Below are positions 1 to 15,987 of a stretch of 38,421 nucleotides of DNA, one piece after another. The stretch spans positions 1 through 38,421 of IMG/VR virus record IMGVR_UViG_2703718837_000008, one strand, 5' to 3'. The notes under the pieces were generated by a model that saw nothing but the letters and a program-made list of their open reading frames with translations, did no database searches and had not been told where the DNA came from. The translations under genes were made by a program, and so were the position numbers. Within the stretch, counting starts at the first letter, position 1; the number at the start of each line of letters is the position of its first letter. This DNA is from a virus. Its lineage: Duplodnaviria > Heunggongvirae > Uroviricota > Caudoviricetes.

Positions 1-543
1 ATGTCAAAAAATCAGAACGCAAAAATTATTTTTGTTGAAGGTGAAACAGAGTATGCCTTGTTTCAAAAGATGAAGCAAAAAGGTTTGATTAAATTCAAAA
101 AAATTGTCAAGAAGAATTTTTGGGTTGACGATATAAAGAAATATGCAGTTAACATACCTAAAAATTGTGATTTAATAGTTGTTTTTGATAGTGATGTTAT
201 TGATAGGGTTGATAGATTTATTCAGAATGTTAATTACTTAGCAAGCAGAAAACATTCGATTTTTTTATTGCAACAGACCAGAAATTTCGAAGAGGAAATC
301 GCGTATTGCTGCTCTGTAACTTTAAATAAATTGATCGCTTCGTTTTGTAAATGCAAGACATCTGGAGTTGCAGATTTTAAGCGAGATTTTATATCTTCAT
401 CTAATCCTTTTGATAAGCTAGTAGCTTTAGGAATTAACCGGGATAAGTGGTTCAAAAGGGAGTTACATCATTCATTGTTAAGTTTATCAAAGTATAAATC
501 AGATTTTTCAACATATTTTAATGCGGATGTTATTAATTTATGA
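1..543 (+). CDS. Toprim-like (RloB/DUF4276-type) protein, probable defence-associated; complete ORF at window edge
   Basis: 180-aa ORF. N-terminal KIIFVEGETEYALF plus downstream CDLIVVFDSDV acidic motifs resemble the E-G-x-T-E / DxD Toprim signature of RloB- and DUF4276-type proteins that normally pair with an AAA ATPase. Very AT-rich. Lies outside the prophage, beyond the int end. Upstream partner, if any, is outside the window. Confidence 0.4.
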   Translation: MSKNQNAKIIFVEGETEYALFQKMKQKGLIKFKKIVKKNFWVDDIKKYAVNIPKNCDLIVVFDSDVIDRVDRFIQNVNYLASRKHSIFLLQQTRNFEEEIAYCCSVTLNKLIASFCKCKTSGVADFKRDFISSSNPFDKLVALGINRDKWFKRELHHSLLSLSKYKSDFSTYFNADVINL

Positions 544-723: not shown

Positions 724-1842
724 TTAAATAACCAATTTAACCCATTCCTGACCACGAGTATCGTTATAGCGATCGGTGGTTGCCTGGACTTTATGTCCCA
801 GTAATGTTTTTGTATCGATACCCTGCGCACGGTACAGCCGTTCTGACAGGGAGCGTTGTTCATGAAATGTTGGTGGTGTTTTTCCTGCTGGTGGAATTAT
901 TCCAGCCAGGTCCCGTGCTTTGGCAAAGTAATCGCTCAGGTTGTCTTTACTCATTGGTTTTGGTTGTTTCTGGTGCCGACTATGAATCAGGTATGGACTC
1001 AATATTCTGTCCCTGCATCCATTAATCACTTCTTTTAGCGATATCCCAATGGCATCACAGCGTAGCGTAAGCGGTAACGCAAGACGCATTCCAGTTTTTC
1101 CCTGGGTAATATGCAGGTGATCGTTCCACACATCTGAAAAACGCATGTGGCAAATGTCATCACGGCGCTGACCAGTAACAATCGCAAGAAGCATTGCGTT
1201 ACGGATAAAGTGTTTTTCAGGCGTTGCGTTGTAAATTTTTTGCCAGTCTTCCAGAGTGAGCCTGGCTCTGGTTACTTTAGGGATCGGTTTACGGGTAGCC
1301 TCCGGAGGATTCCATCCGGGAGGGACTTCCCCTGCATGCTGTGCTTCTTTATAAATATCAACCCATAATCCGCGATTTACTCTCGCTGTGCTGACCATGT
1401 CTTTATCCAGCCACTCGTCCAGTATTAATGCAAAGTCTCTTACTTCCAGTTCTTTCAATGGGTGGTTTCCCAGACGGGAAACCAGGAATGCAGCCATTCG
1501 CGCTTTTTCTTTGTGGGTTGTAGCTGCAATATCTCCATTTTTCAGTCGCGCGTCCTGTATTTTCAGATATCGATCAACCCATGCCTTTAATCTGATACCC
1601 CGACGTTTTATTGCTGACGGGCTTTCATCAATTTTGCGCATGAAATATTCGGCTTCTGCTGCAGCTATTCGCTGATTGGCTGTGGAAGCGATTCTTTCAG
1701 CTTTGCCTTTGTCTGTTCCGAGTCCGTGAAATTTTCCAGTCACAGGGTTTTTATACTGGTAGTAAACTCTGCCAGTTCTGCGATCAAACTTTTCGTAAAG
1801 ACCGGTTACGTCAGTGCTGTTTTTTCGTGGCCTCGGTGACAT
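724..1842 (-). CDS. int: Tyrosine site-specific integrase (lambda Int family)
   Basis: 372 aa. N-terminal arm-binding region and C-terminal catalytic region align by eye to lambda Int (TGQRxxD...HELRSL...LGH...Y...RG.EW). AAGGAG RBS upstream of the ATG at 1842. Overlaps xis as in lambda. Confidence 0.9.
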   Translation of the reverse strand: MSPRPRKNSTDVTGLYEKFDRRTGRVYYQYKNPVTGKFHGLGTDKGKAERIASTANQRIAAAEAEYFMRKIDESPSAIKRRGIRLKAWVDRYLKIQDARLKNGDIAATTHKEKARMAAFLVSRLGNHPLKELEVRDFALILDEWLDKDMVSTARVNRGLWVDIYKEAQHAGEVPPGWNPPEATRKPIPKVTRARLTLEDWQKIYNATPEKHFIRNAMLLAIVTGQRRDDICHMRFSDVWNDHLHITQGKTGMRLALPLTLRCDAIGISLKEVINGCRDRILSPYLIHSRHQKQPKPMSKDNLSDYFAKARDLAGIIPPAGKTPPTFHEQRSLSERLYRAQGIDTKTLLGHKVQATTDRYNDTRGQEWVKLVI

Positions 1843-2080
1843 GAGTTAAAATCTCCTTCAGTGCATCATCATCGCCAGTATGAATTTCCGGCGCAATTCC
1901 CGTTTCACCAGGTCCAACAAATACTGCCCGGCGATCTATCAGCCAACGCCCACGAATTTTTTGTGGTCTTGGAACGATGTATCCTAGTTTTCCGTATTTC
2001 ACCAGGGTAGTGTTTGTTATTGGGAGACTGAACCGTTTTGGCTTCCACTCATCGAGCGTTATCAGGTACTGTTCGCTCAT
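1811..2080 (-). CDS. xis: Excisionase (Xis)
   Basis: Small basic protein (start taken at internal Met MSEQYLITLDEW...) resembling lambda Xis (YLTLQEW...). Immediately upstream of int with a 32-nt overlap. Start codon choice (2080 vs 2089) is uncertain. Confidence 0.75.
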   Translation of the reverse strand: MSEQYLITLDEWKPKRFSLPITNTTLVKYGKLGYIVPRPQKIRGRWLIDRRAVFVGPGETGIAPEIHTGDDDALKEILTHVTEATKKQH

Positions 2081-2141
2081 GGCTATCACTCCGGAACGCG
2101 CCAGTTGCAGAATACCAACGACAACTGGCGACGGTTGAACA

Positions 2142-4613
2142 TTAAAAATCAGCCTGACTCGGGATCAGTTTTTGCCAGATAGCTGAAACGTATTTTGCCT
2201 GGTAACGAGCGTCATCAAGTGCATTATGGCGCTCACCTTCGAATGGGATAGCAGTTCTGGCATCGAAGTCTATGGCTTTCCCCAGCTCAACGATTGTGCG
2301 TACATCGCGATCGTTGTAGTAACGCCACGGGCAGGGGATCCCCTGCCGTTCGTATGAACGGCGCAAAATCGTGTTGTCGAAGTTGGCTCCATTTCCCCAG
2401 ACCTGAACAAAAAACTCACCGGAGTTTTCGTCGATAAATTCCCGCAATTGCAGTAGTGCATCATCTAACGGGATTTCATCGGTCATAATGGCAGACTGCG
2501 CTTCACGTGATTGCTTTAGCCACCATTTAATGACGTCACGATCAATGACTCCGCCAGCAGTATCCAGATCGATGGTCTTGCTAAATTCCGGTCCCATATC
2601 TCCGGTTTGTGGATCGAAAAATATTGCGCCTATTGAGATAATCGGGGCATCGGGATTTTTTCCCATGGTTTCAAGGTCGATCATCAGATGAATCCCCGCT
2701 CTGCTGGTGGATGTTAGATTATGACGACCGTTCGCCTTAATTAAGGGATCTGACGCCTCGCCAGTTTCGCTATCGCTGGCATGATGCTGATTGCCGCCAG
2801 TGTTCTCCTTGTGCTGATGTGCAGTACCTTCCATTTCCTCCGGATCATTTTCCTGAACTTCAGGCTGATTCTCTTCATCGAATATTTCCTGGTATGTTGC
2901 GTCACCCATCACCGCACCACAATCAGGGCAACTACCGCCGCCGCTCTGACCGCAGGCGGTGCAGGCTTTTTCCGGCTCCTGTTGCGCTACTGGTTCAACC
3001 TGTTTCGTTTCTGGCTCGTTTTGTTGCGCATTTGGGCTGTTTTGTTCCGTTTTCTGGTCGTTCTGTTCCGATTCTTGCTGGTTCTGGTTTACAGAATCGC
3101 GGGTTTCAATCCCCTTCACCCATTTCGGATCATTCGGGTCGCTAATCCCTGCAACAAATTCTCCGCGAGAGGCAGCAAGCAACTTATCGGCGTCAGGCTG
3201 GCTGATATTGGCTGCCTGCATAATTTTGTTTACTTCGTCAGCGGTAACTTTTACCGGCTCTGGTTGTGCGATCGTGTCAGATGCACCAGTATTTTGTTGT
3301 GAACCTGAGTATGTGCCGTTTTTGCGGGCAAAATATTCTTCTTTCGTGATTTCAGTAGCCCCTGCAGCCAGCGCCTTATTCAGACCAGAAAGTTTGTTTG
3401 CACGACCATATTTTTCGCCATCCTTATCGGTGAAAAGGAAGTAGAACGGCCCCTCACGCTCTACAGATGGTTCAGTTTCCAGCGTGCTTTCATTTTTTTG
3501 AGTATCAGATACTTCAGTTTCCACTGCATCAGTTTGTGCTGCTGACGGCTGGAGAATATCAGCAGTGTTCTGGTCTGTTTCTTCATCCTCAAATACGCCC
3601 TTTGTCGCCAGGTATTCAGTGATGTATTTGTTCAGTGCTACGGGATCTTTGTGAATGTCGATCGGACGCTCACGGACAAGGCCAAAAATAGTCTGGCGGT
3701 CGTAGCGAAGGGCATCAGGCTGTTTGCGCATTGATGCCGAGATACGCTTCCAGTCTTCGCGGTCGTTGTCGATAACTTCATTTTTTGCCCAGCGATGGAT
3801 GCTGCCGTCAATGTTTCCGGTATCCACATCACCAGGCCAGAGAGCGTAGGCCAGTTCGTCATCCAGTGTTTTCCATGTCTGCTTGTATTCGCGATGAATG
3901 GCAGCAATGACCTGGCTGATTTTTCCTGTTGAATTTTCAGCGTGCTGTTGATTGGCTCTGGCGCGGGCGAGATCAACAACAGACGTGTATTTTCCGGTTT
4001 CCTTGCGTTCACCTTCGCGACGTTTTTTCCAGATGCGCATCTCTGCCTGAATTTCGGGCCATTTGGCACCAGGCTTACATTTATGCTTAACCCACCCGAT
4101 GGCATGCAGCTTAAGCTCCGGATACATGGCGTTAACTTCTGGCATTTTCATCAACGCTTCAACGATATGTCCGTCGAATGTTGCCATGTCTTCCTGCAAC
4201 AGTTCCTGCGCGCTAATCACCATATCAACGGTGATGTTTTCACATGTGTCGAACTTAACCATGACAGCGTTCTGTACTTCAGGGGCCAGCTTGTCAAAAG
4301 TGACGTTCATCGGATCTGATTCAGTCTCAACCGGGACAAAGGAAGCAGACTCCTCATCCCAGCGGTTTTCCTGCATATATTCAGCATCCCAGGAATCGAG
4401 GGCAGGGCGGGGTATACCGGGTTTATCCTCGCAGACAAGAAATTTATAAGCGCAGTCCTGAGCAGCCGGATATTGCTCCAGGAATTGCCAGGTAAATTTG
4501 GCACGGGCGCGGCGTTCGTCACCGGCTTCAATGGCAGTGGCTACAGCAACTGCACCTTCTTCCTTTATTGCCTGTTCGTCCGGAATGGCGGCGCAAATAA
4601 AGACTTTACTCAT
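2142..4613 (-). CDS. Exodeoxyribonuclease VIII-like protein with C-terminal DEDDh (DnaQ-like) 3'-5' exonuclease domain
   Basis: 823 aa. Central acidic/Gln-rich linker and a segment (KLLAASRGEFVAGISDPNDPKWVKG) that I recall from RecE-like prophage proteins. The C-terminal ~180 aa carries DnaQ-like motifs (MIDLETMG ... H.A..DA). No recT-like partner seen. Confidence 0.6.
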   Translation of the reverse strand: MSKVFICAAIPDEQAIKEEGAVAVATAIEAGDERRARAKFTWQFLEQYPAAQDCAYKFLVCEDKPGIPRPALDSWDAEYMQENRWDEESASFVPVETESDPMNVTFDKLAPEVQNAVMVKFDTCENITVDMVISAQELLQEDMATFDGHIVEALMKMPEVNAMYPELKLHAIGWVKHKCKPGAKWPEIQAEMRIWKKRREGERKETGKYTSVVDLARARANQQHAENSTGKISQVIAAIHREYKQTWKTLDDELAYALWPGDVDTGNIDGSIHRWAKNEVIDNDREDWKRISASMRKQPDALRYDRQTIFGLVRERPIDIHKDPVALNKYITEYLATKGVFEDEETDQNTADILQPSAAQTDAVETEVSDTQKNESTLETEPSVEREGPFYFLFTDKDGEKYGRANKLSGLNKALAAGATEITKEEYFARKNGTYSGSQQNTGASDTIAQPEPVKVTADEVNKIMQAANISQPDADKLLAASRGEFVAGISDPNDPKWVKGIETRDSVNQNQQESEQNDQKTEQNSPNAQQNEPETKQVEPVAQQEPEKACTACGQSGGGSCPDCGAVMGDATYQEIFDEENQPEVQENDPEEMEGTAHQHKENTGGNQHHASDSETGEASDPLIKANGRHNLTSTSRAGIHLMIDLETMGKNPDAPIISIGAIFFDPQTGDMGPEFSKTIDLDTAGGVIDRDVIKWWLKQSREAQSAIMTDEIPLDDALLQLREFIDENSGEFFVQVWGNGANFDNTILRRSYERQGIPCPWRYYNDRDVRTIVELGKAIDFDARTAIPFEGERHNALDDARYQAKYVSAIWQKLIPSQADF

Positions 4614-4692: not shown

Positions 4693-4896
4693 TTACGGCG
4701 CTGTTTTTAATCCTGCCGGGATTTCGTTATTATCCTGGTGAATAACTTTATCGACCGGATAACAGTTACCGGGAATTTTCTGTTCCGCTGCGGCAGCCGT
4801 GCATTCTTTCATTGAACCGTAAATGTCAATAACCAAGTCAACAGGCTCGCCCGTATTAAGAAAAACTGTCAGAGTGAGAGCAATTGCTGTATTCAT
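4693..4896 (-). CDS. Small membrane protein, YdfD-like by position (downstream of dicB)
   Basis: 67 aa from ATG at 4896, which overlaps the dicB stop (ATGA). Hydrophobic N-terminus (MNTAIALTLTVFL). Occupies the same position as ydfD in the K-12 Qin prophage. Confidence 0.45.
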   Translation of the reverse strand: MNTAIALTLTVFLNTGEPVDLVIDIYGSMKECTAAAAEQKIPGNCYPVDKVIHQDNNEIPAGLKTAP

Positions 4897-5081
4897 TGCC
4901 AGCATCCTTTTTGCATCGGGCGTAAACGTGCCAGTATTGAAAGAATGCATATTTTATTTAATAGCTCTCGTTCGTGTTTTCTCTTATTAATGGCATCTTC
5001 AGTAAATGCAGGGTTACTGATTTTGACACCAATTTCAAAACAACCTTCAGACGTATTAACGTTTGGTAATAACGTTTCCAT
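4893..5081 (-). CDS. dicB: Cell division inhibitor DicB
   Basis: 62-aa product METLLPNVNTSEGCFEIGVKISNPAFTEDAINKRKHERELLNKICILSILARLRPMQKGCWQ is near-identical to my recollection of K-12 DicB (62 aa). The ORF track extends it upstream, but the conserved length and the DicF spacing support the internal start at 5081. Confidence 0.85.
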   Translation of the reverse strand: METLLPNVNTSEGCFEIGVKISNPAFTEDAINKRKHERELLNKICILSILARLRPMQKGCWQ

Positions 5082-5250
5082 TATCGCGTCCTCAACAATG
5101 AATTTTGTGATGCGGTGCCTGGTGCCTCCAGGTGACGTTAACCAGTTAACAATTAACGCCGGATACAGAGAATCCACCCGTAACACTGTTTTTAGCTTTA
5201 ACTGTTCCGCGTGCGCTGAGCCGCATTCACCGCATCACAAAATTCACTTT

Positions 5251-5308
5251 AAAAAGGGCGGCAGAGCAGTCGCGGAGTAAAACTGATACCGCCAAACGCC
5301 ACCAGAAA
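5251..5308 (-). ncRNA. dicF: DicF small RNA (ftsZ-targeting sRNA)
   Basis: Minus-strand sequence TTTCTGGTGGCGTTTGGCGGTATCAGTTTTACTCCGCGACTGCTCTGCCGCCCTTTTT matches the K-12 DicF sequence as I recall it (1-2 substitutions), ending in a T-run. Lies ~170 nt upstream of dicB, as in Qin. Ends are approximate. Confidence 0.75.
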
Positions 5309-5577
5309 ATTGATAACAGAGGGCGTTGCAGCGGGGTTGTCACTTAAGCGTATGGTCAACCTGACAACCCGGTGTCCTCAACGGGGAAGGAATAACCCCG
5401 CCATACTTACCGCCGCGCCATTTCGCGGAGTGCCACAACCGGAAGCGCACGGTCGACGAAAATTTAACGACAGGCTATCTATAAACCAGCTACCTCGCCG
5501 TACGCTTTCGCGTTGTGTGCCTGCTTTTAACCACGTCAGGCGAGGTGGTTCCTGTTATTCCCCAACAACAAGAAATT

Positions 5578-5585
5578 TGTATAAT
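5578..5585 (+). promoter_or_regulatory. Extended -10 promoter (TGtTATAAT) for the downstream + strand ORF
   Basis: TG at 5578-5579 followed by TATAAT at 5580-5585. Flanked by two 17-nt direct repeats TCCCCAACAAC(A/G)AGAA at 5559-5575 and 5593-5609. GAGAAGA RBS at 5604-5610 precedes a GTG start at 5620. Confidence 0.4.
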
Positions 5586-5619
5586 CCGGATATCCCCAAC
5601 AACGAGAAGAGTACTCAAC

Positions 5620-6075
5620 GTGATAGCAGAACTGTCAGCGGCTATGGCTGCGATAAAGGAGACAGCTGGTCTCGCTAAGGTTATTAATGACGCAAAAACG
5701 GATGCAGAAGTTAAAGCCGCAACTATTGAACTTCAGAACAAACTAATCACGCTTCAGGCGGAATGCTTCTCTCTTTGCGATGCGATCCGCTTTCGTGATG
5801 AAGAGATAATGCATCTCAAAGCAAAAATTGCAGAGACAGAAGATTTTCAGCGACAGGCGGAAGGTTACAAGCTTAACAAGCTTGATTCTGGAACCCTTGT
5901 ATATTCCAAGAAGCAATTTATAGGCGATACTGAGATAACTGTGCATCTTTGCCCACAATGTTTTGGAAAAAAGGCAATATCTGTACTTCAGCCAATGGAA
6001 ATAATGCGCTTTGATGCTCATTTTCGTACTTTTTGCCCCGCTTGCAATAATAAGTTCTGGATGAACTCAAGATAA
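5620..6075 (+). CDS. Hypothetical protein: N-terminal coiled-coil plus C-terminal C4 zinc ribbon
   Basis: ~152 aa from GTG 5620 (ATG at 5644 is an alternative). Heptad-like N-terminus (AAIKETAGLAKVINDAKTDAEVKAATIELQNKLITLQAE...). C-terminus has CPQC...(22 aa)...CPAC. Convergent to the dicB operon and sits in an insertion relative to the K-12 ydfC-dicF junction. Confidence 0.5.
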   Translation: MIAELSAAMAAIKETAGLAKVINDAKTDAEVKAATIELQNKLITLQAECFSLCDAIRFRDEEIMHLKAKIAETEDFQRQAEGYKLNKLDSGTLVYSKKQFIGDTEITVHLCPQCFGKKAISVLQPMEIMRFDAHFRTFCPACNNKFWMNSR

Positions 6076-6926: not shown

Positions 6927-6967
6927 ATGATACCCATGGGTATTCAAAAAGTAAATACCCATGGGTA
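6927..6967 (-). promoter_or_regulatory. Predicted promoter of the ydfABC-dicF-dicB operon with two identical 12-bp palindromic operators
   Basis: Perfect palindrome TACCCATGGGTA at 6931-6942 and again at 6956-6967 (25 bp centre to centre). On the minus strand a TTTACT(-35)-17-TATCAT(-10) promoter (plus coordinates 6950-6955 and 6927-6932) overlaps them. Confidence 0.5.
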
Positions 6968-7009: not shown

Positions 7010-7429
7010 TTATGATGCGTTTTGTGCTTTCTTTTTACGGATTTCTTCGTAGATCATATTGTAATACTGTTTTTTCTCTTCAAGAGTTTTTAATAAGTTA
7101 TCCGCTTCACTTTCAGGCAGTTCGTCTAAGAGATCTAAAAAAATACGTTGTCGTGGCGTTAGAACCCTTGTTTCATAATTGGAGGCTGTGTTCGTTGATG
7201 ATGAAACGATACCATCCATCCATCCCCGGGGTAACCCAAAGGACTCTTCTATAATCTCCACCATATCATCAGCGATCCGTTTTTTTCCTTTTTTCCCCTC
7301 TGGGTACAACATTCTTGATACATAAGAAGGCTCGCGACCGATCTTTCTGGCCACGTTAACCGCTTTACCATCGCATTTCTCATCACGAATTTTGATGAGT
7401 TGTTGTCGTCTAAATTCATATTTGTCCAT
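7010..7429 (-). CDS. DicA/CI-like HTH (XRE family) repressor
   Basis: 139 aa from the internal Met at 7429 (MDKYEFRRQQLIKIRDEK...). HTH segment VNVARKIGREPSYVSRML. C-terminus (LTPRQRIFLDLLDELPESEADNLL...) resembles DicA as I recall it. Divergent from a Cro-like gene. The longer ORF-track start at 7471 would run into the operator region. Confidence 0.7.
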   Translation of the reverse strand: MDKYEFRRQQLIKIRDEKCDGKAVNVARKIGREPSYVSRMLYPEGKKGKKRIADDMVEIIEESFGLPRGWMDGIVSSSTNTASNYETRVLTPRQRIFLDLLDELPESEADNLLKTLEEKKQYYNMIYEEIRKKKAQNAS

Positions 7430-7449
7430 AGGTAAATAATAGATGCGAT

Positions 7450-7504
7450 TACCGCAAGGTAAACAACCCAAGGGTATTGACTTTTGTTTACCTGTGGGTA
7501 TTCT
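7450..7504. promoter_or_regulatory. Divergent immunity-switch control region: three TACC-N4-GGTA operators and a rightward promoter
   Basis: TACCGCAAGGTA (7450-7461), AACCCAAGGGTA (7465-7476), TACCTGTGGGTA (7489-7500). TTGACT (7477-7482)-16-TATTCT (7499-7504) reads toward the Cro-like gene, with the third operator overlapping the -10. Confidence 0.55.
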
Positions 7505-9833: not shown

Positions 9834-12092
9834 ATGAAACCAGAATACTTAAGAAAAATAGAATCATTGCAACGTGAGGTTGATGATTTCCATCCAGTGC
9901 TAAGAGCGCTTCTACCACGTTTGCCGACTGTTACACATGTTGAATATAAGCAAGGACCATCAGAAAAAGGTGCTGATTTTGTCATAATTAAACGAGATGA
10001 GGCATTAGACGAGGAAATATATATTGGTGTTATTTGTAAAGTTGGAAAGATAATTCAGTCAAATAGTGAGGTTGAACGACAAATAGAAGAGTGTCAATTA
10101 TATCCACGCTTTATTTCTTCTGGCTCTAAGAACATACATTTGAATGAAATTTGGGTTATTACTAATTCATCGATCTCAAATAATGCTCAAGAAAAAATTT
10201 ACTTGAAATTCAAATCTACAAATATAAAATTTATAGAGGGTGAAAAAATATGTTCTTTAATCAGTAAATATTACCCAGAGTTTTGGGATTTCGAATCCAT
10301 TAATTATGAACAATACTTAACAGATACATTGCAAACCATAAGTGATACACCTGAAAGTTCTTTTTTTGGTAGTGTTGGCATAAATAACCTTATTGATAGA
10401 TATGTAAGCAAGGAGGATCATAAAAAACGCAGACACAGGCCGTTAAAACTGTATAGTGTTGTGAGAGCCGAGAGATTTATTTTTTTAGAGGGAACCGTTG
10501 GCTCTGGGAAAAGTACTTTGCTGAAACAGTTAATTAGAAAAATAAAAGAAGAATATTCTTACGAAAAAGACTACATCCTTCCAGTATTTTGTCAATACAA
10601 GGATGTTCTAGAAAAAAAACTTAATGTTGAAAATATAATACAAAGTGTGTTAAGTAAGTACAAAATACAACATGATGGGAATATTTTATTAATTGTTGAT
10701 TCGGTTGATGAAGTAAAGGAATCACTTGAGGAAAGGCAAAACAACTTCAGGGACATTGTAGAGAAAGTATCCAGGAATGATAAAGTTCGATTACTAGTTG
10801 CTTCAAGAATTATGGATTCTCTTCAGGACTATGAAGTTATCGATCAGATGTTTGCAAGATACTCGATAATACCACTTAGCACAGGTCAAATAATCGACTT
10901 TGTAGATAAAATCTGCAATGACATTAAAATAACAAATAAACTTAAAAATGGTATAGAAAAAACACCACTATTTAAGTTCATTCCCAGGACTCCAGTGAGC
11001 GCTATTCTTCTGGCAAGAATACTCTCTGATGAGATTAAAGAATTACCATCTACAATGACAGAACTATACTCAAAATACAGTGAGATAGTATTGGGACGAT
11101 GGGATACATCTAAGGGATTATTATCGCAAACAGAATATGATGTAATAAGTAATATATTAGTAGAAATTGCGATGTTTATGATGGATAACTCTCTAAACTG
11201 CATATCAATTTCAGAAGTGCAGGACATGTTTTTAAATTATTTGGCCAAAAGAAACTTGAATGTTGATGAGGACAAACTTTTCAAAAGACTAATTTATCGC
11301 AGTGAAGTAACAACAGTTAATGTTAGAAGTAATACGTTCTCATTTCTACACAGATCATTCATGGAGTATTTTTACGCTGAAGGACTTAGGAAGCGTGGCC
11401 TAATAGACATAAATGATAATATTTATGATATTTATTGGGCAAATAGTTATTTCTTCTATTTTGGTTTGTTACGAGACAATGAATATCTTATTGATAAAAT
11501 TAATGAACTTAAACCTAGTAACGATAAAACAAGATTTTTAAGGTTGTTTTATAACGGTTCTTTTTATTTGGCTTCATATCTAACTCCGTATAAAAAAATA
11601 ACGAGGGGAGTCCTTTTATCATATATAGATGCAGGTAAATTATATGTTGATATTCTCAAGGGAAATACCGACATCCCGCTGAAGGAATTTTCACCAGTAG
11701 CTCTTCTTTGTATTTTCACAAAGTGTTTAAGTAACAATTACGCATATGATTTTTTCAAATCTGCCTTGGAAGACTTGTCAGTTCAAATTGAACAATATGA
11801 GGAAATTGGTGAACATATTGATTATGCACGTTTCTTCATAGCATCAACACTGAATGAGCTCGGGGATAAATCCGCATTTGATAGCTTAGTGGAAAAAAAT
11901 AAATTAGGTGTTTTGATTAATTTAGGGATAACTCACGTTACAGACGACTCAGGACTACTTAGCACTACGGTTGATAAGTACCTGAAAAAATTCAATAAAA
12001 AAGTACGAAGTAACCATGATATGTCTAATTATATATCTAAGTTATATGAGGAATCTACAGGTTCCTTACGTACAAACCTGCAAATTCAATAA
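9834..12092 (+). CDS. NACHT-type STAND NTPase with N-terminal PD-(D/E)xK-like nuclease domain (bacterial NLR-like antiphage candidate)
   Basis: 752 aa. Walker A FLEGTVGSGKST (aa ~217-228). Walker B with NACHT signature ILLIVDSVDE (aa ~285-293). NACHT winged-helix motif SFLHRSFMEYFYAEG (aa ~502-516). N-terminal GADFVIIK...EIYIGVICK resembles an Mrr-like D...E.K nuclease core. Strongly AT-rich relative to the flanking phage genes, with its own promoter and a 13-bp stem hairpin after the stop. Confidence 0.7.
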   Translation: MKPEYLRKIESLQREVDDFHPVLRALLPRLPTVTHVEYKQGPSEKGADFVIIKRDEALDEEIYIGVICKVGKIIQSNSEVERQIEECQLYPRFISSGSKNIHLNEIWVITNSSISNNAQEKIYLKFKSTNIKFIEGEKICSLISKYYPEFWDFESINYEQYLTDTLQTISDTPESSFFGSVGINNLIDRYVSKEDHKKRRHRPLKLYSVVRAERFIFLEGTVGSGKSTLLKQLIRKIKEEYSYEKDYILPVFCQYKDVLEKKLNVENIIQSVLSKYKIQHDGNILLIVDSVDEVKESLEERQNNFRDIVEKVSRNDKVRLLVASRIMDSLQDYEVIDQMFARYSIIPLSTGQIIDFVDKICNDIKITNKLKNGIEKTPLFKFIPRTPVSAILLARILSDEIKELPSTMTELYSKYSEIVLGRWDTSKGLLSQTEYDVISNILVEIAMFMMDNSLNCISISEVQDMFLNYLAKRNLNVDEDKLFKRLIYRSEVTTVNVRSNTFSFLHRSFMEYFYAEGLRKRGLIDINDNIYDIYWANSYFFYFGLLRDNEYLIDKINELKPSNDKTRFLRLFYNGSFYLASYLTPYKKITRGVLLSYIDAGKLYVDILKGNTDIPLKEFSPVALLCIFTKCLSNNYAYDFFKSALEDLSVQIEQYEEIGEHIDYARFFIASTLNELGDKSAFDSLVEKNKLGVLINLGITHVTDDSGLLSTTVDKYLKKFNKKVRSNHDMSNYISKLYEESTGSLRTNLQIQ

Positions 12093-12550: not shown

Positions 12551-12704
12551 TTTTATATTGGCGAGGTGACGTGAGTTAAGTAGAATTGCTGCGGGTGCTT
12601 GAGGCTATCTGCCTCAGGCATGAACACCAAAGGCAGATAGAGAAAAGCCCCAGTTAACATTACGCGTCCTGCAAGACGCTTAACATTAATCTGAGGCTCA
12701 ATCT

Positions 12705-12917
12705 ATGAACGGCAAATCTAGGTTAGCCTCTTACGTGCCGAAAGGCAAGGAGAAGCAGGCTATGAAGCAGCAAAAGGCGATGTTAATCGCCCTGATCGTC
12801 ATCTGTTTAACCGTCATAGTGACGGCACTGGTAACGAGGAAAGACCTCTGCGAGGTACGAATCCGAACCGGCCAGACGGAGGTCGCTGTCTTCACAGCTT
12901 ACGAACCTGAGGAGTAA
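12705..12917 (+). CDS. mok-like overlapping reading frame (translational coupling frame for hok)
   Basis: 70-aa ORF in the same frame that contains the entire hok ORF, as in hok/mok loci. Confidence 0.4.
   Translation: MNGKSRLASYVPKGKEKQAMKQQKAMLIALIVICLTVIVTALVTRKDLCEVRIRTGQTEVAVFTAYEPEE
12762..12917 (+). CDS. hok: Hok/Gef family type I toxin
   Basis: 51-aa product MKQQKAMLIALIVICLTVIVTALVTRKDLCEVRIRTGQTEVAVFTAYEPEE matches the HokD/RelF sequence as I recall it. Followed by fbi-like 3' complementarity and a terminator. Confidence 0.85.
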   Translation: MKQQKAMLIALIVICLTVIVTALVTRKDLCEVRIRTGQTEVAVFTAYEPEE

Positions 12918-13084: not shown

Positions 13085-13357
13085 ATGGCGCACAAAACCA
13101 AATTTCACAATTCTGATACCGACCTTGCCATCAGGCATGGGCGGCGTTCACTCGCATTTAAAACCGACTGGTACCAACACCCACCATGTACTGAAGAACA
13201 GGCCGAATGGCTAATTCATAACTACCGCAGACGCGGATACGAGATTAAGAAAGCCCTCAGCCTCGATTATCGTCACTGGATAATCTATGTCAGGCTCCCT
13301 TATTCCGAACGCCCACCGCGCCCATCCCGCACATACCAGCAACGGATCTGGAGGTAA
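13085..13357 (+). CDS. Hypothetical protein, Rem-like by position
   Basis: 90 aa. Sits between hok and the DUF968 gene, the same position as rem in the Qin order hokD-rem-ydfU-quuQ. No motif recognised. Confidence 0.4.
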   Translation: MAHKTKFHNSDTDLAIRHGRRSLAFKTDWYQHPPCTEEQAEWLIHNYRRRGYEIKKALSLDYRHWIIYVRLPYSERPPRPSRTYQQRIWR

Positions 13358-13358
13358 C

Positions 13359-14414
13359 GTGCGGATATTACTTCGACCTGTTCTGGTACCGGAACTCGGG
13401 CTGGTGGTCCTTAGGCCGGGCCGTGAATCCATGCAAGTATTTCATAACCCTCGAGTGCTGGTGGAGCCTGAACCGAAAAGCATGCGTAATCTGCCGTCCG
13501 GGGTCGTTCCTGCCGTTCGCCAGCCGTTGGTGGAAGACAAAACATTGCTGCCGTTTTTCAGTAACGCACGGGTGATTCGTGCTGCTGGTGGTGCTGGTGC
13601 ATTGTCTGACTGGCTGTTGCGCCATATTAAATCCTGCCAGTGGCCACACGGCGATTATCATCACAGCGAAACTGTCATTCACCGTTATGGTACCGGCGCA
13701 ATGGTGTTGTGCTGGCACTGCGACAACCAGCTGCGTGACCAGACATCCGAATCACTCGAGCAACTTGCTCATCAAAACCTGTCAGCATGGATGATTGACG
13801 TCATCGGTCACGCAATAAGCGGTACGCAGGAGCGTGAATTATCTTTGGCTGAATTATCCTGGTGGGCGGTCCGCAATCAGGTGGCGGACGCGCTACCGGA
13901 AGCGGTATTACGTCGTTCGCTGGGGTTGCGTGCGGAAAAAATCCGCTCAATGTACCGTGAAAGCGACATCGTACCGGGAGAGCAGACCGCCACCAGCATA
14001 CTGAAGCAGCGCACAAAAAATCTTGCGCCGCTGCCTCACGCCCACCAGCAAAACCCGCCACAGGAAAAGACGGTGGTCAGCATTGCCGTTGATCCGGAGT
14101 CACCGGCTCAGTATCTCCAGCGCCAGAAACCACAACGGGAAGAGATGCCTGTATACACGCGTTGGGTAAAAACGCAGAAATGCATGACGTGCGGTAATCA
14201 GGCAGATGATCCGCATCACATCATTGGTCATGGACTGGGAGGGATGGGAACAAAGGCTGATGATTTGTTTGTTATTCCGCTGTGCCGTAAATGTCATAAC
14301 GAACTGCACGCCGGGGTAAAAGATTTTGAAGAAAAACACGGCAGCCAGCTGTTGTTGCTGATTCGTTTTTTAATGCACGCGAGAAATTCGGGTGTCCTGA
14401 AGTGGAAAGCATGA
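13359..14414 (+). CDS. DUF968 / YdfU-like protein with C-terminal HNH-type zinc-finger nuclease motif
   Basis: 351 aa from GTG 13359 (GGAGG RBS; the ORF track extends further upstream). C-terminal CMTCG...HHIIGHGLGGMGTKADDLFVIPLCRKCHNELH is an HNH-like motif. Confidence 0.6.
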   Translation: MRILLRPVLVPELGLVVLRPGRESMQVFHNPRVLVEPEPKSMRNLPSGVVPAVRQPLVEDKTLLPFFSNARVIRAAGGAGALSDWLLRHIKSCQWPHGDYHHSETVIHRYGTGAMVLCWHCDNQLRDQTSESLEQLAHQNLSAWMIDVIGHAISGTQERELSLAELSWWAVRNQVADALPEAVLRRSLGLRAEKIRSMYRESDIVPGEQTATSILKQRTKNLAPLPHAHQQNPPQEKTVVSIAVDPESPAQYLQRQKPQREEMPVYTRWVKTQKCMTCGNQADDPHHIIGHGLGGMGTKADDLFVIPLCRKCHNELHAGVKDFEEKHGSQLLLLIRFLMHARNSGVLKWKA

Positions 14415-14780
14415 ATGACTGAACGCATAGAATTTGTTTTGCCTTACCCGCCGACGGTGAATACTTACTGGCGGCGTCGTGGCAGCACATATTTTGTATC
14501 AAAAGTCGGTGAGCGTTATCGCCGTGATGTGGCGCTAATTGTTCGCCAGCAGCGGCTGAAATTAAATCTGTCCGGAAGGCTGGCGATAAAGATTATTGCA
14601 GAGCCACCGGATAAACGCCGCCGCGACCTGGACAATATCCTGAAGGCACCACTGGATGCGCTGACGCATGCCGGACTACTCATAGACGACGAGCAGTTTG
14701 ATGAAATCAATATAGTGCGCGGTCAGCTCGTTCCTGGTGGGCGGCTGGGGATAAAAATCACAGAACTGGAGTGCGCATGA
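14415..14780 (+). CDS. rusA: Holliday junction resolvase RusA
   Basis: 121 aa. Motifs YPPTVNTYWRRRG and PDKRRRDLDNILKAPLDAL resemble the RusA catalytic core (DRRRRDLDN in K-12 RusA). Confidence 0.85.
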   Translation: MTERIEFVLPYPPTVNTYWRRRGSTYFVSKVGERYRRDVALIVRQQRLKLNLSGRLAIKIIAEPPDKRRRDLDNILKAPLDALTHAGLLIDDEQFDEINIVRGQLVPGGRLGIKITELECA

Positions 14781-15677: not shown

Positions 15678-15753
15678 GGCCCTTTAGCTCAGTGGTGAGA
15701 GCGAGCGACTCATAATCGCCAGGTCGCTGGTTCAAATCCAGCAAGGGCCACCA
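15678..15753 (+). tRNA. tRNA with CAU anticodon, probably tRNA-Ile2 (lysidine type; Met not excluded)
   Basis: 76 nt, manually folded. Acceptor GGCCCTT/AAGGGCC, D-stem GCTC/GAGC, anticodon loop CTCATAA, T-loop TTCAAAT, 3' CCA encoded. Resembles E. coli ileX as I recall it. Confidence 0.8.
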
Positions 15754-15754
15754 A

Positions 15755-15831
15755 CCGCCACTAGCTCATCAGGAAAGAGCGTCAACCCTTTAAGTTGAGT
15801 GTGCGAGGTTCGAGTCCCCGGTGGCGGTCCA
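15755..15831 (+). tRNA. Atypical tRNA-like gene, anticodon UUU by loop position (Lys-like) with C33
   Basis: 77 nt, manually folded. Acceptor CCGCCAC/GTGGCGG, D-stem GCTC/GAGC, perfect anticodon stem TCAAC/GTTGA, loop CCTTTAA, T-loop TTCGAGT with one T-stem mismatch, CCA encoded. C at position 33 and C1 are unusual. Confidence 0.5.
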
Positions 15832-15833
15832 GT

Positions 15834-15909
<76 letters not shown>

Positions 15910-15912
15910 TAT

Positions 15913-15987
<75 letters not shown>

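Follow-up and report, generated by a model that had tools for sequence, protein, structure and literature searches.

The window analyzed here is the whole 38,421-nucleotide stretch of a tailed-phage sequence (Caudoviricetes; IMG/VR record IMGVR_UViG_2703718837_000008). Its minus strand carries an open reading frame (ORF) that runs from 4613 to 2142 and encodes the 823-amino-acid protein considered in this study. The ATG is preceded by a GAGG ribosome-binding site located ~10 nt upstream. The protein joins a scaffold related to RecE and YdfE to a C-terminal exonuclease head of the DEDDh type, and its parts are listed below.

2142..4613, minus strand: whole gene, 823 amino acids, RecE/YdfE scaffold plus DEDDh head (ORF list; stop codon 2142-2144)
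3846..4613, minus strand: residues 1-256, YdfE_N region (96% identity to the K-12 ydfE pseudogene product)
3579..3845, minus strand: residues 257-345, helical segment common with RecE (BLASTP to RecE 295-367, E 5e-4)
3099..3461, minus strand: residues 385-505, second shared middle segment (GPFYFLF...; DADKLLAA...DPNDPKW), present in all head variants
2742..3194, minus strand: residues 474-624, Q/N/E-rich acidic linker (composition; 72% identity to Rac-SA53 RecE 471-614, BLASTP E 3e-65)
2919..2963, minus strand: residues 551-565, four-cysteine knuckle CTACG...CPDCG, a candidate zinc ribbon with predicted zinc binding
2175..2690, minus strand: residues 642-813, DEDDh 3'-5' exonuclease domain PF16473 (Pfam E 7.4e-66)
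2670-2678, within the DEDDh domain: Exo I, D646/E648
2376-2378, within the DEDDh domain: Exo II, D746
2211-2228, within the DEDDh domain: Exo III, H796..D801

The C-terminal head was assigned by Pfam, in which PF16473 (Rv2179c-like 3'-5' exoribonuclease domain) matched residues 642-813 with 221.6 bits against a cutoff of 27 and covered model positions 2-177 of 177, while PF00929 (RNase_T) matched the head weakly. The MIDLETMG motif corresponds to residues 644-651, and all five DEDDh residues are intact, as represented by D646, E648, D746 (NGANFD), and H796 and D801 (HNALDD). No substitution of these five residues was seen in an alignment with two stand-alone homologs from E. coli phages, one from a Pseudomonas phage, and phage T2 DexA (the T4 DexA ortholog), and they are likewise invariant in 114/114 full-length database homologs. 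The sole solved structure reached by sequence was PDB 8kel_A, a 227-residue exodeoxyribonuclease with the DexA sequence (E 1e-5). Furthermore, neither Pfam nor phmmer with the RecE nuclease domain (RecE 620-1048) found a PD-(D/E)xK domain in the 823-residue protein, and the same phmmer query does detect this head in other members of the scaffold family. The first-pass annotation had read the C-terminal ~180 residues as a DEDDh 3'-5' exonuclease in place of the PD-(D/E)xK nuclease of RecE. Domain annotation of the region bears this out: the DEDDh family was recovered, the DEDD motifs aligned, and the profile searches returned no RecE nuclease.

In the N-terminal region (residues 1-256), an alpha/beta subdomain (~1-95) is followed by a helical subdomain (~105-205), and the AlphaFold model has a predicted local distance difference test score (pLDDT) of 87.9. 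The adjoining helical segment, residues 257-345, was found by phmmer in RecE_N-type as well as YdfE_N-type proteins. BLASTP against Rac-SA53 RecE gave 72% identity over residues 474-624, a stretch that includes the four-cysteine knuckle, and a weak match over residues 262-335. The cysteines themselves (C551, C554, C562, and C565) are invariant in 114/114 homologs and are also kept in RecE. The RecE N-terminal family PF06630 (Exonuc_VIII) gave no Pfam match at E <= 1 in the 823-residue protein. An hhalign comparison using a profile built from 20 diverse N-terminal regions, some of them from chimeric members, aligned residues 52-336 with RecE 47-378 at a probability of 99.8%. The N-terminal relation to RecE is visible at the profile level only, and in Pfam residues 1-256 fall under YdfE_N, not PF06630.

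The NCBIfam equivalog model for RecE (NF007259) scored 264.2 bits against a cutoff of 1269 and covered residues 246-626 only (model 271-603 of 877). Canonical RecE (exonuclease VIII) is ruled out by this sub-cutoff score together with the lack of a PD-(D/E)xK domain in the NCBIfam, Pfam, and phmmer searches. The RecE-like N-terminal and linker region proposed earlier is nevertheless supported by the 72% identity over 474-624, the RecE model match over 246-626, and the profile match over 52-336. Judged by sequence, the protein is a RecE relative over most of its scaffold, but not a RecE. It shares with RecE of the Rac prophage the homologous scaffold, including the four-cysteine knuckle, and an operon place just upstream of the excisionase and integrase genes (xis/int). 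By Pfam, the N-terminus is filed under YdfE_N in our protein and under Exonuc_VIII in RecE, and RecE of Rac ends in a PD-(D/E)xK 5'-3' nuclease followed by recT, whereas the protein studied here ends in a DEDDh domain without an annealase.

Several phage records name the protein 'exodeoxyribonuclease VIII'. This label, together with the insertion sequence (IS)2-cut pseudogene of K-12 and other copies that are frameshifted or IS-interrupted, would favor reading the gene as canonical RecE or as a decaying, non-functional remnant of one. The ratio of nonsynonymous to synonymous substitution rates (dN/dS), determined against two orthologs, was 0.12-0.30 for residues 1-256, ~0.15 for residues 385-505, and 0.08-0.13 for the DEDDh domain, whereas the acidic linkers (346-384 and 576-640) gave 0.57-1.14 against phage Tritos and 0.24-0.57 against a clinical E. 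coli copy. Selection is relaxed in the acidic linker parts; the low dN/dS of the folded parts indicates that they are under selection and that the protein is not a decaying remnant. An intact ORF of ~823 residues is also present in ~67 of the 78 DEDDh-bearing IMG/VR loci. With the invariant catalytic residues, the RecE model matching the middle region only, and the missing PD-(D/E)xK domain, these values make a RecE or a remnant of one extremely improbable.

The 823-residue protein is an intact ortholog of the E. coli K-12 pseudogene ydfE (b1577). Residues 1-256 share 96% identity with the K-12 product, whose gene in the Qin prophage is interrupted by IS2E, and both copies have the neighbors ydfA/B/C, dicF, dicB, and ydfD. 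K-12 YdfE stops at the IS2E insertion, after residue 256, and has neither the middle region nor the nuclease, whereas the window copy is intact. PHROG 2082 'exonuclease' matched residues 1-823 of 823 (E 0). Proteins of 90-95% identity are named exonuclease or 3'-5' exoribonuclease, and the assignment to Pfam PF27430 (YdfE_N) and PF27432 (YdfE_C) was read from their records. In the NCBI Prokaryotic Genome Annotation Pipeline (PGAP) the gene is labeled 'exonuclease' or '3'-5' exoribonuclease domain-containing protein'. Megablast at a coverage of at least 80% found the gene in 3537 of 5426 complete E. coli genomes, and genomes with any megablast match carried it at a median of two places and up to ten. 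The family is already known as a very common, catalogued E. coli prophage protein (PHROG 2082, Pfam YdfE_N/YdfE_C). The architecture pointed out in the first-pass annotation is real; the gene is a routine one, the intact ydfE. What the present analysis adds are the interchangeable heads with matching neighbors, the stand-alone relatives in an Erf-SSB-exonuclease-Abc2 module, and the Chi excess, described below.

A search with residues 1-640 against 1.84 billion representative proteins returned only 249 clusters. Dissection of the long members by phmmer revealed two N-terminal types (YdfE_N and RecE_N), a shared middle, and three C-terminal heads, namely DEDDh, the RecE PD-(D/E)xK nuclease, and a ~280-residue head without a Pfam match. 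Each head occurs with both N-terminal types. The third head is a Rad52-fold annealase, an assignment settled by fold comparison only; by sequence, a PDB profile search was negative and Pfam Rad52_Rad22 was sub-threshold (E 0.004). The genes next to each head were as follows.

PD-(D/E)xK head: recT next, 3/3 loci (Rac-SA53, P0130, P0196)
Rad52-fold annealase head: Sipho_Gp157 gene next, 3/3 loci (phage ZF40, P0128, P0133)
DEDDh head: xis/int next and no annealase, 7/7 loci

The P0128 locus additionally has a weak Gam-like gene upstream. The YdfE_N-middle-DEDDh architecture was found in 78 of 80 IMG/VR contigs, and none of the 80, searched with flanks of up to 6 kb, contained RecT, Erf, SSB, Abc2, Gp157, a PD-(D/E)xK head, or a Rad52-like head; these contigs are near-identical E. 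coli prophages, and their number is a replicate count and not independent evidence. Orf77 and Orf81 of Pseudomonas phage PAE1, which lie beside its DEDDh gene, were considered as a Rad52-like head and excluded by hhalign. The Stx2a phage JNE160313 (L008 16-2085) carries a RecE_N-type scaffold with a DEDDh head, frameshifted and IS-cut; this chimera shows exchange between the RecE and YdfE lineages inside the shared linker.

The gene order in the window is repressor, ydfA-like (DUF1391), two small ORFs, DicF, DicB, YdfD-like (DUF1482), exonuclease, excisionase, and integrase. An identical order was observed in K-12 Qin, phage Tritos, and one clinical E. coli chromosome. The exonuclease gene is the last early-left gene ahead of xis/int and forms the end of the dicBF operon of Qin-type lambdoid prophages. 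Its neighbors were assigned as follows.

4693-4950, minus strand: YdfD-like DUF1482, upstream operon partner
4893-5186 as listed, minus strand: DicB (Pfam DicB covers residues 36-97)
5256-5307, minus strand: DicF small RNA (Rfam, 73.5 bits)
1811-2089, minus strand: excisionase (Pfam Exc)
724-1842, minus strand: lambda-type integrase (Pfam Arm-DNA-bind_1, Phage_integrase)
6927..6967, minus strand: candidate early-left promoter and overlapping inverted repeat (6931-6967) with a 16-bp stem (TACCCATGGGTA core) (consensus scan)

The candidate promoter is situated upstream of the ydfA-like gene, and the inverted repeat at 6931-6967 is a possible operator, as read from the sequence, for the 153-residue repressor encoded at 7010-7471. 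The consensus scan found no promoter-like site on the minus strand between 6927-6967 and the exonuclease gene. The ORFs between the exonuclease gene and the repressor are all shorter than 100 residues, except for one opposite-strand ORF of unknown function, and the families matched by the small early-left ORFs have no known function. The opposite-strand ORF (5515-6075, plus strand, 186 residues) lies between DicF and the ydfC-like gene, matches PHROG 1244 (unknown function), and has a CxxC...CxxC end after a coiled-coil-like stretch.

The lack of a recT partner, pointed out in the first-pass annotation, extends beyond the adjoining genes, which are xis and int: tblastn of the window at E <= 0.1 gave no match for RecT, Erf, SSB, Abc2, the RecE nuclease, or the Rad52-like head, a query set that did not include lambda Beta, Sak4, or Gam. 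The window's only other recombination-related genes are a DUF968/HNH nuclease (375 residues) and a RusA resolvase, located together at 13287-14780 on the plus strand in the nin region. Lambdoid Rec-module genes include DnaQ-like 3'-5' nucleases (Zheng et al. 2025, PMC12315714). As in the Rec modules of that study, the nuclease gene of the window is in the early-left operon adjoining xis/int; of the strand-annealing and anti-RecBCD proteins that also belong to them, no Erf, RecT, Rad52-like, or Abc2 homolog was found in the window by tblastn.

The DEDDh head has homologs in 1524 phage records, and its nearest stand-alone homologs share 58-60% identity with it. In phage mEp235, the gene order Kil, Erf, SSB, exonuclease, Abc2, xis, and int constitutes a tightly packed recombination module, unlike mEp460_4F5, in which no Erf/SSB/Abc2-type neighbors were identified next to the nuclease gene. 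These stand-alone DnaQ-like nucleases (mEp235 and mEp460_4F5, and that of epsilon34 in Zheng et al. 2025) have the catalytic residues and the early-left site near xis/int in common with our protein. They are ~185 residues long, whereas the protein studied here is the same domain fused to a RecE-type scaffold, without the partners.

The window contains 17 Chi sites (GCTGGTGG), compared with a mean of 1.43 and a maximum of 6 in dinucleotide-preserving shuffles. This number is about twice the E. coli genome average. The sites are at 887, 2703, 8056, 8101, 13400, 13457, 13584, 15591, 20175, 20615, 20971, 30070, and 30249 on the plus strand and at 13990, 14042, 17553, and 17863 on the minus strand. 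The strand bearing the head and tail genes thus has 13 of the 17 (a 13:4 bias); a cluster occupies the nin/Q/lysis region, with five sites inside the DUF968 gene. The site within the exonuclease gene and the counts in four genomes, a small sample for comparison across phages, are given below.

2703..2710, plus strand: Chi GCTGGTGG inside the exonuclease gene, one of 17
This window: 17 Chi; recombination genes, DEDDh fusion only
Tritos: 11 Chi; recombination genes, DEDDh fusion only
mEp460_ev081: 9 Chi; recombination genes, DEDDh fusion only
mEp235: 3 Chi; recombination genes, Erf, SSB, exonuclease, and Abc2

Tritos and mEp460_ev081 each have a top-strand Chi within their own copy of the gene. 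A Chi-rich class of lambdoid phages without annealase and anti-RecBCD genes has been described, in which RecBCD aids growth (Zheng et al. 2025, PMC12315714), and the window phage matches this class. Since it is Chi-rich and neither an annealase nor an Abc2-type RecBCD inhibitor was detected in the window, host RecBCD/RecA probably runs its recombination.

The gene position, the head swapping, and the neighbors of the stand-alone homologs support the suggestion of a recombination nuclease. We propose, with a probability of about 0.5, that the gene encodes a 3'-5' DNA exonuclease of the recombination module that is made on induction. Its substrate and role are inferred; DNA would be the substrate by analogy with DexA and in view of the recombination context.

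Two-metal 3'-5' hydrolysis is the established chemistry of the DEDDh superfamily. In the proposed enzyme, two Mg2+ ions would be held by D646, E648, D746, and D801, with H796 acting as the general base, and nucleotides would be removed from 3' ends. The RecE-homologous scaffold of ~640 residues comprises folded segments, acidic linkers, and the four-cysteine knuckle, with a DexA/Rv2179c-type DEDDh domain replacing the 5'-3' head of RecE. The gene is probably co-transcribed with the ydfA/B/C-like genes, DicF, DicB, and YdfD from the repressor-controlled early-left promoter; the protein would therefore be made on induction, not in the lysogen. The scaffold probably directs the head to, or assembles it at, a site common to RecE and the annealase-headed relatives. 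The most likely task of the enzyme, on a speculative view, would be to trim 3' single-stranded tails or flaps at the ends of phage DNA. For example, ends might be blunted to let RecBCD load and act at Chi, or annealed intermediates made with the annealases of co-resident prophages might be tidied.

Phage T4 DexA (PDB 8kel) shares the Pfam family of the head, and the DEDDh residues align. DexA is a 3'-5' DNA exonuclease that takes part in recombinational intron homing. Identity between DexA and the head is ~24% (measured with the T2 ortholog); moreover, DexA is a stand-alone 227-residue protein with extra loops and a dimer/tetramer switch, and the equivalent of its W152 is not conserved in the family of the head. 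The described roles of DexA also include the scavenging of host DNA. This homology, and expected expression in an early lytic operon with the host-directed DicB and DicF, could suggest that the protein breaks down host DNA in the lytic phase, either to scavenge nucleotides or to shut off the host. We consider this quite improbable: an exonuclease requires ends and the operon encodes no partner endonuclease, and the RecE scaffold and head swapping would be left unexplained. Degradation of the host chromosome is not known from lambdoid phages.

A stand-alone E. coli DexA homolog, EcD (HREX), is reported to cut DNA containing 5-hydroxymethylcytosine (5hmC) and to confer protection against T4 (Kang et al. 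2025, PMC12153337). This precedent, the shared Pfam family, the match of the head to the DexA structure 8kel at E 1e-5, and the wide distribution of the gene in E. coli would fit a prophage defense nuclease of the HREX/EcD type that degrades incoming 5hmC-containing phage DNA. Using DexA-based residue mapping, and taking the start of EcD (MIDTET...) from its cloning primer, we found that EcD and our protein are both E. coli DEDDh proteins of the DexA family but differ in several respects. EcD is stand-alone and begins at the Exo I motif, in contrast to the 823-residue fusion. The D90 position of DexA, an alanine in EcD, is kept as D718. W152 of DexA, which is needed for 5hmC recognition, aligns with Y766, a position that varies in the family (Y/C/H/S). 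EcD is claimed to be specific for 5hmC. The combination that defines HREX/EcD (a stand-alone DexA homolog, D90 changed to A, and the 5hmC Trp/Asp kept) is not present in the protein studied here, as judged from the fusion, D718, and Y766; the alignment at D169 of DexA was not reliable. Additionally, the gene is located in a repressed early-left operon without a promoter-like site of its own, and PADLOC gave a generic DEDDh match only. A defense nuclease of this type is unlikely. The 'anti-defence' suggestion of the first-pass annotation, a separate matter, gained no support.

The head also matches, end to end, the Pfam family founded by Mycobacterium tuberculosis Rv2179c, a small chromosomal exoribonuclease without phage context that was compared through the Pfam model only. 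PF16473 is named after this exoribonuclease, PGAP calls relatives '3'-5' exoribonuclease', and the operon is shared with the processed small RNA DicF. These observations would be compatible with an RNA- or oligonucleotide-directed 3'-5' exonuclease, acting in the processing of phage or host RNA, or in anti-defense by degrading nucleotide signals or DNA/RNA hybrids of host immune systems. No link to any defense system was found, the same scaffold otherwise bears DNA-recombination heads with recombination partners, the stand-alone homologs are inside recombination modules, and DexA, of the same family, is a DNase. We regard such a role as having a low probability.

The proposal of a recombination-module DNA exonuclease must be weighed against several points. 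In E. coli, 3'-5' exonucleases usually act as inhibitors of homologous recombination (Zheng et al., PMC12315714). The founding member of PF16473 is an exoribonuclease by its Pfam name, which leaves RNA as a possible substrate. The missing annealase partner is what would be expected of a protein that is not part of a recombinase, and the head-neighbor rule was drawn from a small number of loci that are partly related to one another. Chi richness is a property of the phage and does not prove that the DEDDh protein uses Chi. Fold comparison of the N-terminal region (residues 1-256) gave no informative match and no functional clue, and a literature search on ydfE function found no functional study, with no activity, substrate, or phenotype on record.

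A broader extension of the recombination-module proposal, which we put forward tentatively and hold to be doubtful, is that the RecE/YdfE scaffold serves as a general adaptor that brings a 5'-3' nuclease, a 3'-5' nuclease, or a Rad52-type annealase to one cellular target. The DEDDh form would be adapted to Chi-rich lambdoid phages without an annealase, processing ends for the host RecBCD-Chi-RecA pathway.

Other features of the window are as follows. A 752-residue NACHT/STAND NTPase (9834-12092, plus strand), probably the product of an anti-phage cargo gene, has NCH1 as its C-terminal domain and a weak N-terminal match to an Mrr-like nuclease. Its gene occupies an island of 31% GC that separates the replication genes from the nin region. 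A Rfam sok antitoxin RNA at 12593-12767 (plus strand, 111.7 bits) implies that the prophage carries a toxin-antitoxin locus of the hok/sok type. At 15678-15987 (plus strand), just downstream of the antiterminator Q gene, are four tRNA genes in tandem, Met(cat), Lys(ttt), Thr(tgt), and Gly(tcc). At 1-543 (plus strand, 34% GC), adjoining the integrase end, a 180-residue ORF showed weak similarity to AbiLii (E 5e-4) and matches PHROG 10204; elsewhere among E. coli genomes it occurs beside an AAA ATPase, and it accompanies this integrase in 9 genomes.

About two thirds of complete E. coli genomes contain the gene studied here, often more than once, with no recorded function, and the broken state of the only K-12 copy may be the reason for its oversight. 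Its function would clarify how annealase-less lambdoid phages recombine through host RecBCD and Chi. The head-swap pattern, which includes a Rad52-fold annealase on the same scaffold, amounts to a set of natural chimeras, and what RecE uses its long N-terminal part for is of interest to recombineering. If the adaptor idea is true, this unexplained 600-residue part of RecE gains a testable role, and a pro-recombination job would fall to a member of the 3'-5' exonucleases, which are usually regarded as anti-recombinogenic.

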